Shown here in pieces: positions 3,074-5,985 of a stretch of 13,031 bases of DNA. The first letter of the stretch is position 1, and each line of letters starts with the position of its first letter. A program made the translations under genes and the position numbers. The notes beneath the pieces were generated by a model. The model was not told the DNA's origin, ran no database searches, and saw only the letters and a program-made list of their open reading frames with translations. Source of the DNA: a virus; the UHGV virus genome UHGV-0124295, one strand, 5' to 3'.

Positions 3074-4450
3074 TCATACGTCAGCCCCTTGTGCATATCG
3101 TCTGCCACGTGCAGCGGGTGCATTTGATGTTGTGCAAATCTGTCTGGCTTCATCCTGATCACATGCAACAAAGTGTCCGTTGCAGAACCGCTGGTAAACC
3201 GTACCAAGCGAGCCAAAACGGTTTTTCGTCACAATGATTTCAGCAAATGGCGCGGCGCTACTGTTCTCGTCATATACCGCTTCCCGATAGAGCATGATGA
3301 TTGAGTCTGCGTCCTGTTCAATGCTTCCTGAATCACGCAAATCTGCGTTTGTCGGGCGTTTGTTTGGTCGCTTCTCAACATCGCGTGAAAGCTGACTTAG
3401 GGAGATAACTGGCGTTTTCAGGTCTTTCGCCATCGCCTTCAGGCTTCCGGAGATGTGAGCAATTGCGAGGTCGTTGCGGTCTGCTTTCGGCTTCTCAATC
3501 AGGCCAAGATAATCCGCCATGATGAGTGAGAGGTTTGGATTTTCCTGTTTGTGCCGTTCTGCGATTGAGCGAATTTCTTCGACCGATAACCGCGAGGCAT
3601 CGACTACCCATACATCCAAATCTGCAAGCTGACTCATGCCGTTAGCAACACGCGCCCAGCCTTCGTCATCCATCGATGCAGGATTTCGCAGTACGCTAAC
3701 CGACATCCTCCCGGCGTTGGCAATGCTTCGCTCTGCAATCTGCAATGCGCTCATTTCCATCGAGAAAATCAACACTCCGCGCCGGACATCAGAACCAGGA
3801 ATAACGCGGCTTGCCACGCCTTCGGCAATCTTCAGCGCCAGTTCGGTTTTCCCCATACCAGGACGAGCGGCGATAATCACCAGGTCTTCTGCGTTCATCC
3901 CTCCGGTGATAGCGTCAAGTTCTTCGATTCCGGTCTTCAGGGTATCTGACTCTTCTCCGTTCCTCAGACGCCTGTCAAGCGTGTCAGTGTAGTCGGTGAT
4001 GATTTCCCCTAACCGTACAGGTTTAACCTCGTCACGGGGCTTTCTGATGGCTGAAAGACGCTTTACAAGCTCATCCATCGCCTGACTCGATGCGTCGATG
4101 GTTCCGCTCTGAATTGGTTCACGCATTTCATCCATGATTTCCAGCACCAGACGGCGGTGATAGTTATCCGCGACCATTCCGGCATATCCCTTCAGGTTTG
4201 CGGCACTCGGGCAGTTTTTGCTGGTCATCAGGATTGACGTGAAATGCTCCTCTCCGCACGCCTCGGCAACCATCAGCGCGTCGATTAGGTTTCTGTTTCT
4301 CGCCTGCTTGCGGATAACCTCGAAGGCTTTCCGGTAGAGCGGAATTGAAAACGCTTCCGGCTCAAGCGTTGCCAGAACGTCACTGGCGGTTGGAGTTAAT
4401 CCACCAATCAGCAGGCCACCGATAACGCTCGCTTCGATATCCTGTCTCAT
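3074..4450 (-). CDS. Replicative DNA helicase, DnaB family (P22 gp12-like)
   Basis: 458-aa ORF with Walker A ([16 protein letters not shown]) and DnaB-like N-terminal and RecA-like C-terminal architecture. ATG 4450..4448 overlaps the stop of the O-like gene (ATGA). Confidence 0.85.
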
Positions 4451-5394
4451 GCAATCCCCCTGTCTGCAAACTTCCCTTCCCGAACTCCCGTTAACGAATC
4501 TTCCCTCAGCAGGTAATCAAAATCAGCTGTCCAGCCCGTGTCGTTGTCTCCGAAGTAAAACGGCTTGGCCTGATGCACAAACGCCCTGACATACGCTCTG
4601 AAACCGTCCACGTTTGGCGTTTTCAGTTGCGGGATGATTTTCTTCAGGCGGCGTTTGCGTTTCTCGTTGACCGCAACAGCGTGTGGAAGTCTGTCACCGA
4701 CTTCGGTGTTGTAGGCGTTCAGGAAGGATTCGTAGTCGATTCGTTCTGCCTTGCGACGTTCAGGTTTAACCTGCCCATCGCCTCCCCCATTGGGGGGTAG
4801 GGGGGTATTATTTATATTCTTGTTAATACCTTCTTGTTCATGATGTGCGGTTGTTTGTGCGGCTTCATGTGCGCTTTCATGTGCGGCATGTACTCTGAAA
4901 GCCGCGCCATTGCTGGCTTCGTCATGTGCGGCATCATGTGCGGTTGTTTGTGCGGCTTCATGTGCGGGTGAATTGTCCATTTTTTGAGCGTATTCATGGT
5001 AATTTGTGATGGTGATCACACGACCTTTTTGCTTCTCTCCATCAATGGAGATCATCCCCTCTTTCACAAAAACCTGAAGCATCCGCTCAACCTGATCACG
5101 GCTTGCCGGCTTGCCATGCCTGTCGCATAACTGAAGACCTAAATCAGCTGCTGTCACAACCAGTTGACCGGGTTGCAGATGCCATTCATGACCTTTGAAA
5201 TTCGCTTTGTATGGCTTTCTGGCGGCATTCAGGAGAAGGTTTTCCCACAGGGTGCGAAGATAAACATCTTTCGCCCATGACTGTTTCAGAATGCTCCGGT
5301 ACAACGGAATGTAACCAGTTTTCTGGTTCTCCATCCTGTTGCTCCTGCGCTCGTGTGCGGCGCTGAAATCGTAGATTTTTGCTGTATTGCTCAT
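4447..5394 (-). CDS. Replication initiator, lambda O / P22 gp18-like
   Basis: 315 aa; N-terminus [10 protein letters not shown] resembles lambda O (MTNTAKILNF). The central low-complexity repeats ([17 protein letters not shown]...) are encoded by the iteron DNA. Position upstream of the helicase fits an initiator-helicase module. Confidence 0.8.
4844..4967. repeat. Iteron array of the putative replication origin inside the O-like gene
   Basis: Eight copies of a TGTGCG(G/C) core at a 12-bp period in two clusters (4844, 4856, 4868, 4880 and 4925, 4937, 4949, 4961), followed in the gene direction by an AT-rich stretch (4806-4830) and a C5-ATT-G6 inverted repeat (4784-4805). Confidence 0.6.
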
Positions 5395-5396
5395 AA

Positions 5397-5669
5397 CTAC
5401 CTGCCTTGACGAAAGACCTTAAGAACATCGTTAAACTGACTTACGGATATGTCTTCTTTGAGCAGCTTTTCCAGAAATGCGTTTGGAATGAACGTATATC
5501 CCTCCTCTTTTGGTAGGGACGGGAGCAACGCCCTCGCCTCAGCCTTCAGAAGCTCAGTTCTGGCAACTTTCACAAAAGAGATTTGAGTTCTTTCATCAAT
5601 GGAACGAAGGAAGCGCAAACGCTTAGCTTCTTTGTGTGTATCAGGTGGATTAAAGCCTTTGTTTCGCAT
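5397..5669 (-). CDS. Hypothetical protein (90 aa) between cII and the O-like gene
   Basis: MRNKGFNPPDTHKEAKRLRFLRSIDERTQISFVKVARTELLKAEARALLPSLPKEEGYTFIPNAFLEKLLKEDISVSQFNDVLKVFRQGR. RBS GAGG lies 7 nt before ATG 5669..5667; stop TAG is 2 nt before the O ATG. The track ORF 5397..5942 has a non-coding N-terminal extension. Confidence 0.5.
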   Translation of the reverse strand: MRNKGFNPPDTHKEAKRLRFLRSIDERTQISFVKVARTELLKAEARALLPSLPKEEGYTFIPNAFLEKLLKEDISVSQFNDVLKVFRQGR

Positions 5670-5679
5670 ATAATTACCT

Positions 5680-5747
5680 CGTTGGATGTTATTAAAATTC
5701 CATTTGGATTTGTTCAGAACGCTCGGTTGCCGCCGGGCGTTTTTTGT
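5680..5747 (+). ncRNA. oop: oop-like antisense RNA ending in a t_oop-like intrinsic terminator
   Basis: Plus-strand CCATTTGGATTTGTTCAGAACGCTCGGTTGCCGCCGGGCGTTTTTTGTT matches the 3' half of lambda OOP RNA from memory (terminator hairpin 5720-5739 plus T-run). A TATAAT -10 candidate lies at 5669-5674. The 5' end is estimated; the RNA is antisense to the cII 3' end. Confidence 0.5.
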
Positions 5748-5985
5748 TGGTGAGAATCGAAGCAACTTGTCGTGCCAATCGAGCCATATCGTCGTCAACG
5801 ACGCCCCATTCAAGAACAGCAAGCAGCATTGAGAACTTTGGAATCCAGTCCCTCTTCCACCTGCTGATCTGCGACTTATCAACTCCAACAGCTTCCGCTG
5901 TCTTCTCAGTTCCAAGCATTGCGATTTTGTTAAGCAACGCACTCTCGATTCTTAGAGCCTCGTTGCGTTTGTTTGCACGAACCAT
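5692..5985 (-). CDS. cII: Transcriptional activator CII
   Basis: Track ORF 5692..6072; the true start is the internal MVRANKRNEALRIESALLNKIAMLGTEKTAEAVGVDKSQISRWKRDWIPKF... at 5985, which from memory is essentially lambda CII (97 aa). Lambda-like RBS context TTAAGGAAATACTTACATATG. Confidence 0.9.
   Translation of the reverse strand: MVRANKRNEALRIESALLNKIAMLGTEKTAEAVGVDKSQISRWKRDWIPKFSMLLAVLEWGVVDDDMARLARQVASILTNKKRPAATERSEQIQMEF

Follow-up and report, generated by a model that had tools for sequence, protein, structure and literature searches.

ORF90, a conserved 90-codon gene between cII and the replication initiator gene in lambdoid phages

ORF90 and its neighbours in the early operon

The window analysed here is a stretch of 13,031 nucleotides (nt) from UHGV virus genome UHGV-0124295. 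Its minus strand carries a small open reading frame (ORF) between a cII gene and an O-like replication initiator gene. This ORF, referred to as ORF90, occupies positions 5397..5669 and consists of 90 sense codons and a stop codon. As read from the sequence, its ATG lies at 5669-5667 and its TAG at 5399-5397. A Shine-Dalgarno (SD) sequence, GAGG (5677..5680, minus strand), is found 7 nt 5' of the ATG; at this site, seven of eight loci have GAGG or GGAG and the remaining one (L004) has TAGG. Upstream, a gap of 22 nt separates ORF90 from a lambda-type cII gene (5692..5985, minus strand, 97 amino acids; Phage_CII E 1.7e-48). Downstream, the TAG is followed by 2 nt (5396-5395) and then by the ATG of the initiator gene (5394-5392). 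The initiator (4447..5394, minus strand) has 315 amino acids and matches phrog_345 as well as the Pfam family Phage_rep_O (3.3e-15, profile positions 1-95 of 95). Its 3' end is overlapped by a DnaB-like helicase gene (3074..4450, minus strand), which is annotated as a helicase in relatives and whose homologues contain DnaB Pfam domains. A first-pass annotation, made from the letters of the window alone, had claimed a 90-amino-acid ORF with a good ribosome binding site that ends 2 nt before the O start. This ORF is real, the spacing was confirmed from the sequence and all coordinates given were correct.

The conservation pattern of ORF90 shows that it truly encodes a protein. The gene belongs to the early rightward operon and is cotranscribed with the initiator gene. 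In pairwise comparisons of six homologues (67-86% nucleotide identity), the ratio of nonsynonymous to synonymous substitution rates (dN/dS) was 0.06-0.16 in the 11 pairs with a well-estimated dS, the other four pairs being saturated at synonymous sites. The differences among these homologues fall mostly on third codon positions (648, versus 227 on first and 199 on second positions). The proportions of synonymous (pS 0.68) and nonsynonymous (pN 0.18) differences likewise reveal purifying selection on the amino-acid sequence over the entire length of the gene. The length is constant at 90 codons among the six homologues, with one Salmonella variant of 86. A size of 90-93 amino acids is kept in relatives as distant as ~50% identity, and conservation of both stop codon and length extends to relatives with 51% identity. 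A chance ORF is ruled out, because dN/dS is well below 1. We also rejected a longer, mechanically derived ORF of 181 amino acids starting from a GTG at 5942: conservation starts at MRNK, and in L005 an upstream extension past that ATG is impossible. The position of ORF90 implies translational coupling to the initiator gene, and a purine-rich stretch inside its last codons is a possible SD sequence of the initiator.

ORF90 is not new, as it has already been catalogued by PHROGs, GenBank and PGAP as a conserved hypothetical protein. It is matched over its full length by phrog_2519, a family of unknown function (E 1.9e-57, positions 1-90 of 90), which its divergent relatives match too. An ORF with 98-100% identity occurs in JEP4, CUS-3, Kapi1, Gally, HF4s, TL-2011a and ~50 Shiga toxin 2a (Stx2a)-converting phages, and annotated copies are labelled "hypothetical protein"; the copies of CUS-3 and the Stx2a phages are identical to that of the window. 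Under the same name, ORF90 is present in 279 of 5426 complete Escherichia coli genomes (5%). The family has few members, all from Enterobacteriaceae, with 34 clusters in a search of 5.8 billion proteins. An exhaustive hidden Markov model (HMM) search of 1.84 billion representatives returned 15 family matches, all short (52-164 amino acids), and the family has members in two of 185,579 species representatives (Scandinavium and Pseudescherichia).

Some of the records that contain ORF90 have peculiarities of their own. The CUS-3 record (CP000711.1) has no ORF90 annotation, and its cII gene (L003 2725-3105) is annotated with an N-terminal extension, giving 381 nt and 126 amino acids versus the 97 amino acids of the lambda-type protein. 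The record OR850084.1, "Staphylococcus phage SA 1298 Kay" (2692 bp), is an enterobacterial lambdoid sequence with an ORF90 homologue whose identity (74.1%) and E-value equal those of Salmonella phage S.Inf 5-2; this record is probably mislabelled or contaminated. Among E. coli prophages (proteins P0016, P0021, P0022, P0025, P0020, P0024), some have frameshifts around ORF90 codons 50-57, and in others the C-terminus of the DnaB-like helicase has been joined by a deletion to ORF90 codons 1-52. Such frameshifted and fused alleles look like those of decaying prophages that have lost the initiator.

The slot between cII and the initiator gene

Next, we focused on the position of ORF90 in other phages. 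Of eleven loci that were inspected, ten have a Phage_CII gene on one side of ORF90 and an initiator gene on the other; on the eleventh, the 572-nt contig L018, only the downstream initiator is visible. The ORF90 stop and the initiator ATG are separated by 2 nt or overlap by 4 or 8 nt, except in L018, where the gap is 53 nt. The initiators that follow ORF90 belong to at least two DNA-binding types (TGYIPLYRS... and QGHFALFRS...), with a mosaic junction after about codon 25 of the initiator gene, and the gene downstream of them encodes either DnaB or a lambda-P-type loader. The upstream cII genes vary in subtype as well, being lambda-like in the window and P22 c1-like in L010, L013 and L014. The homology between the window and lambda extends to the cII stop codon and then stops.

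The lambda sequence agrees with the first-pass annotation that no gene lies between cII and O in that phage; O directly follows oop. The annotation had described ORF90 as an extra ORF, but an ORF at this position is not unusual for P22-like modules: the same slot is filled by orf48 in P22 and by ECs_1188 in Sp5. It had also proposed to check whether P22-like modules carry an ORF upstream of the initiator, and commonly they do. P22 orf48 (48 amino acids; DUF2740, PF10872, phrog_1913; L015 1350-1496) overlaps gene 18 by 8 nt at its 3' end, and the annotated oop promoter of P22 covers its start. ECs_1188 of Sakai Sp5 (L016 8512-8658) is the same gene as orf48. In Klebsiella phage ST16-OXA48phi5.2 the slot (L012 1704-2501) holds a ParB-helix-turn-helix protein of 265 amino acids, and in Yersinia phage vB_YenM_210.17 (L017 1568-2501) it holds a 59-amino-acid ORF and a KilAC antirepressor of 226 amino acids. 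In both phages, the 3' end of the last slot gene overlaps the initiator start by 4 nt. The ParB and KilAC genes thus share the position and the coupling of ORF90, but they are much larger and unrelated in sequence; homology between ORF90 and the Klebsiella slot protein was tried and rejected. The initiators of these two phages are 74-79% identical over their first 80 residues to the type associated with ORF90. As initiators of a related type coexist with other slot genes, ORF90 is unnecessary for this initiator type. Taken together, the cII-O junction is a variable, general cargo slot of lambdoid phages, and ORF90 is ordinary for P22-like replication modules.

In the literature the P22 module appears as "orf48-18-12" or "cro-c1-orf48-O-P", and no function is given for orf48. 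Our literature searches found no functional study of DUF2740, of orf48 or of a gene between cII and O, and the term "DUF2740" occurs in no searchable paper. Both phrog_1913 and the RefSeq P22 record label orf48 a "tail protein". For a gene of the early operon, this label is almost certainly an annotation error that was propagated through PHROGs.

The probable oop promoter and the two ends of the slot

The slot is bordered on one side by the cII 3' end with oop, and the 5' end of ORF90 coincides with a predicted oop promoter, pO. The hexamer TATAAT (5669..5674, plus strand) lies in the lambda register, its first base pairing with the A of the start codon of ORF90. Eight diverged loci all contain it unchanged as part of AATTATATG, the flanks of which are 50-70% identical. 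In lambda, the pO -10 hexamer is ATTATG on the r-strand (38683-38688) and overlaps the O ATG (PMC3349717 and the lambda sequence); the pO- mutation replaces ATTAT, and oop starts at 38675, beside the SD sequence (PMC3349717). The registers match: CAAC followed by GAGG-TAATTAT-ATG in the window corresponds to CAAC followed by AGGAG-TCATT-ATG in lambda. TATAAT at 5669-5674 is very probably the -10 element of the oop promoter, as the first-pass annotation had claimed. A candidate -35 element, TGGATT (5646..5651, plus strand), lies in ORF90 codons 7-8 at a 17-nt spacing. It matches the consensus at three of six positions and is not conserved between loci. Because this element is weak, pO was not called by a sigma-70 consensus scan.

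The predicted oop-like RNA would span 5681..5749 on the plus strand, with its start at G5681 placed by the lambda register. A terminator scan located a hairpin followed by a T-run at 5716-5743 (plus strand; fold -20 kcal/mol), and L013 and L014 retain a hairpin plus T-run with a different sequence. Rfam has no model for this RNA, and none of its families matched the window. The predicted transcript would be complementary to the 3' end of cII and to the intergenic spacer, and not to the SD sequence or the ATG of ORF90. As G5681 lies upstream of the SD sequence, it is the promoter and not the transcript that overlaps the ORF90 5' end. Of the antisense pairing proposed in the first-pass annotation, the part concerning the cII 3' end therefore stands, but the part concerning the ORF90 start codon does not. 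ORF90 shares with lambda O a promoter footprint over its first codons, here roughly the first eight.

This arrangement resembles that of lambda in several ways: the first gene after cII has its start codon under the -10 hexamer, the predicted RNA start adjoins the SD sequence, and the terminator hairpin falls within the final codons of cII. Unlike in lambda, the gene beneath the promoter is ORF90 and not O. The -10 hexamer is also a perfect TATAAT here, whereas lambda has CATAAT, and the -35 element is poor and not conserved. The predicted oop is ~66-69 nt, with a 5' end placed from the sequence, versus 77 nt in lambda. A relic pO-like sequence, TCGTAG-17 nt-CATAAC, is found at the O start (5375-5410, plus strand) and is homologous to lambda pO, TTGAGT-17-CATAAT. 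We rejected it as the actual oop promoter, as its -10 hexamer is without the final T and it is not kept in relatives. The presence of this relic fits the insertion of ORF90 between oop and the ancestral O start.

On the other side of the slot, the 5' end of the initiator gene contains the best-conserved DNA of the region. Over O codons 3-23, mean pairwise identity among eight diverged loci is 84-90%, against 53-78% (mostly 60-74%) in ORF90, and pS is 0.35 versus 0.68. A conserved hairpin element spans O codons 9-21 (5332..5370, minus strand), with UUUCAGCGC and GCGCAGGAG forming a stem around a loop. The stem is invariant except for one GC-to-GU change, and the loop is variable. In the predicted fold, the hairpin would sequester the SD sequence AGGAG (5346-5342) of an in-frame internal ATG, M21 (5334-5332). 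Several gene callers start O at M21, and public annotations disagree on the start. The N-terminus encoded from the upstream ATG is homologous to lambda O MTNTAKILNF. The ClpX degron of lambda O is TNTAKILNFGR (PMC12723719), a sequence that is also present as a tag on Arc in PDB 9pio. Our analysis supports the upstream ATG as one O start, which encodes a lambda-O-like ClpX degron, and two O isoforms, with and without the degron, are conceivable. The initiator gene also contains an array of CATGTGCGG-type iterons with 12-nt spacing (4837..4979, plus strand), which encodes the repetitive linker of the initiator and is the presumed origin. No iterons or other repeats linking ORF90 DNA to this origin were found.

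Origin and possible role of ORF90

To relate ORF90 to known proteins, we compared it with domain families and structures. With an alignment of 18 sequences, AlphaFold2 predicted its structure with a predicted local distance difference test score (pLDDT) of 83.8; an earlier run with 12 close sequences was poor (pLDDT 60). The model contains a long, N-terminally basic helix (residues 10-51), a beta-hairpin (54-59) and two further helices (63-71 and 76-86). The most conserved part of the protein comprises residues 36-88, and the residues that are invariant in the family lie between 39 and 86. No family in Pfam, NCBIfam or PADLOC matched ORF90 above its cut-off, and the PADLOC defence HMMs gave only a weak match to JetB (E 0.021, 13 bits). 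A sequence profile search of the PDB gave no match, and fold searches were uninformative.

Below the cut-offs, the C-terminal half of ORF90 resembles the start of the O DNA-binding domain. Phage_rep_O (PF04492) is matched by 16 of the 18 family members, with a best E of 5e-5 and all scores under the 28.7-bit gathering threshold. In the window, residues 55-88 of ORF90 align to profile positions 6-39 (14.6 bits, E 0.048); this is below the 28.7 bits that define membership, and the complete winged-helix domain (profile ~1-95) is absent. Three family members match phrog_678, which is annotated as O-like, and BLASTP aligns ORF90 to lambda O residues 26-59 (E 5e-4). The ORF90 family HMM scores 10.4 bits against lambda O and 6.4 bits against P22 gp18 in the same register, compared with a maximum of 5.9 bits in 1800 shuffled controls. 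The counterparts of ORF90 residues 55-88 are residues 26-59 in lambda O and 25-58 in P22 gp18, and the shared motif is GY..IPN.(F/L)LE.LL....(L/I)S..QF..(V/I)L..F(R). Unlike lambda O and gp18, ORF90 holds only about one third of the domain and is without the recognition helix, the wing and the C-terminal helicase-recruiting domain. In addition, where lambda O has its degron, ORF90 has an unrelated 54-residue N-terminal helix.

The N-terminal half of ORF90 weakly resembles P22 orf48. An hhalign comparison aligned ORF90 residues 1-46 with orf48 residues 2-41 (E 0.0013, 40 columns), and none of 300 column shuffles reached this score; an earlier, less focused comparison of ORF90 with DUF2740 had given E 0.029 over 18 columns. 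The PF10872 (DUF2740) HMM itself had no match at E<=1 in any of the 18 family members. Both genes occupy the slot after c1/cII and oop, both start under an oop promoter (annotated in P22, probable in the window) and both are coupled to the initiator gene at their 3' end. Their start contexts are also similar (GGAGTAATTATG in P22 orf48 and GAGGTAATTATATG in ORF90). Unlike the 90-amino-acid ORF90, orf48 has 48 amino acids and no O-like C-terminal half, and PHROGs places the two in separate families.

The two short similarities are collinear with the P22 order, orf48 followed by gene 18, and on their basis ORF90 appears to be of chimeric origin. As residues 55-88 resemble an N-terminal segment of O, origin from an old O gene is likely. 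An orf48/DUF2740-like N-half would have been fused to residues 25-59 of a lambda/P22-type O, which correspond to the strand and the first two helices of the winged-helix domain. This O stump would have been left behind when the present O and DnaB module, with its own start codon, replaced an older module, and selection would have maintained the chimeric product since then. The exhaustive HMM search found no full-length initiator with an ORF90-like N-terminus, and therefore no parent gene was identified. On the metagenomic contig L018, positions 1-264 encode a 62-amino-acid family member (P0040) that starts with MSNVKNF. Its GY motif is preceded by ~25 residues, just as in lambda O and P22 gp18. 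P0040 may be an unfused initiator stump; its frame is open upstream to the contig end, and its start is uncertain.

With some hesitation, we favour the view that ORF90 serves the replication module as a non-essential accessory, which acts on or with the initiator and feeds ribosomes to the first O start. ORF90 would pair with the O N-terminal domain or with a partner that both proteins share. Its translation would bring ribosomes to the weakly signalled first O start, which would produce the degron-bearing form of O. ORF90 cannot be an O-type iteron binder, because it is without the recognition helix and the wing. Several observations weigh against an accessory role in replication. The remote similarities extend over only 34 and 40 columns and score under curated cut-offs, the first hhalign comparison with a small O alignment gave E 0.15, and the ORF90 family HMM matches none of the neighbouring initiator types. 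The relatedness of ORF90 copies is also independent of initiator type, as the L004 copy (type A) is nearer to that of L009 (type B) than to that of the window, and this speaks against ORF90 specifically contacting the variable surface by which O binds DNA. Furthermore, the slot has unrelated cargo elsewhere, so that a role in replication does not follow from position alone. A bolder proposal, which we consider unlikely, is that ORF90 is an exapted half-initiator that regulates the resident O, either by capping N-domains during assembly of the origin complex or by setting the ratio of M1 to M21 forms through coupling. The M1 form would then carry the ClpX degron, and the M21 form, the SD sequence of which lies in the conserved hairpin, would be without it.

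It is also possible, though we are more doubtful of this than of an accessory role in replication, that ORF90 is accessory cargo for anti-defence, host takeover or competition between phages, without a role in replication, in a recombination-permissive slot that is flanked by two conserved boundaries, one formed by oop and the 3' end of cII and the other by the 5' end of O. The filling of the slot varies accordingly, from none in lambda to DUF2740, ParB-helix-turn-helix or a 59-amino-acid ORF with KilAC in other phages; ORF90 relatedness does not follow the initiator type; and the family, as is typical for accessory genes, has a narrow and patchy distribution (Enterobacteriaceae, 5% of E. coli, two of 185,579 species representatives). 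Against this, the most conserved segment of ORF90 resembles an initiator N-terminus, and the JetB hit (E 0.021) is the only match to the defence library and not a meaningful one. Unlike a typical moron, ORF90 has no promoter or terminator of its own, and its translation is in all cases coupled to that of the initiator gene. Alternatively, selection may have conserved the DNA of ORF90 for roles in cis, such as pO, the delivery of ribosomes to O or a recombination boundary, and the protein would then have little or no function. The first (ATGCGAAACAAA) and last (CGTCAAGGCAGGTAG) codons, which overlap the pO spacer and the possible ribosome binding site of O, are indeed conserved in nucleotides, and some prophages have frameshifted and truncated alleles. 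We nevertheless find this explanation rather improbable: amino-acid selection extends over the whole length with synonymous sites near saturation, pO and the O ribosome binding site together span only ~15 of the 90 codons, and frameshifted alleles are expected in decaying prophages.

A role in the lysis-lysogeny decision, through the stability or activity of CII (as for CIII) or through the expression of pO and oop, seems quite improbable to us. A CII-family gene lies directly upstream of ORF90 wherever this region is visible, and the ORF90 5' end overlaps the probable oop promoter. CIII has a long amphipathic helix, and the long helix of the ORF90 model, also amphipathic, is reminiscent of it. 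But cII precedes the replication genes in all lambdoid phages, so that adjacency to cII is uninformative. The upstream cII genes are moreover of different subtypes, and ORF90 has no similarity in sequence or fold to CIII or any other regulator. That ORF90 is no separate gene, being either a frameshifted O N-terminus or a chance ORF, is scarcely credible, even though its residues 55-88 resemble an N-terminal segment of O. The frameshift scenario, which the first-pass annotation had named as a possible refutation, was rejected because the neighbouring O is complete: it spans Phage_rep_O 1-95 of 95 and begins with a lambda-like N-terminus of its own. The segment in question also resembles the lambda/P22-type O and not the neighbouring O type, and the conserved stop codon and length, down to 51% identity, and the low dN/dS speak for a gene under selection.

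In itself, the finding is of little weight, as ORF90 is another conserved hypothetical protein of the lambdoid early operon, and what is mildly new is limited to the proposed chimeric origin and to the conserved element in the first codons of O. The general cargo role of the cII-O slot adds to its value, as does the distribution of the ORF90-O-DnaB module, which is found in 5% of complete E. coli genomes and in ~50 sequenced Stx2a-converting phages. If an initiator stump does tune O, a recombination scar would have turned into a regulator, which may provide a handle on the replication of Stx phages and hence on toxin dose. If ORF90 were indeed an exapted half-initiator, it would represent a small phage-encoded control of initiator dosage and turnover in many Stx2a phages.

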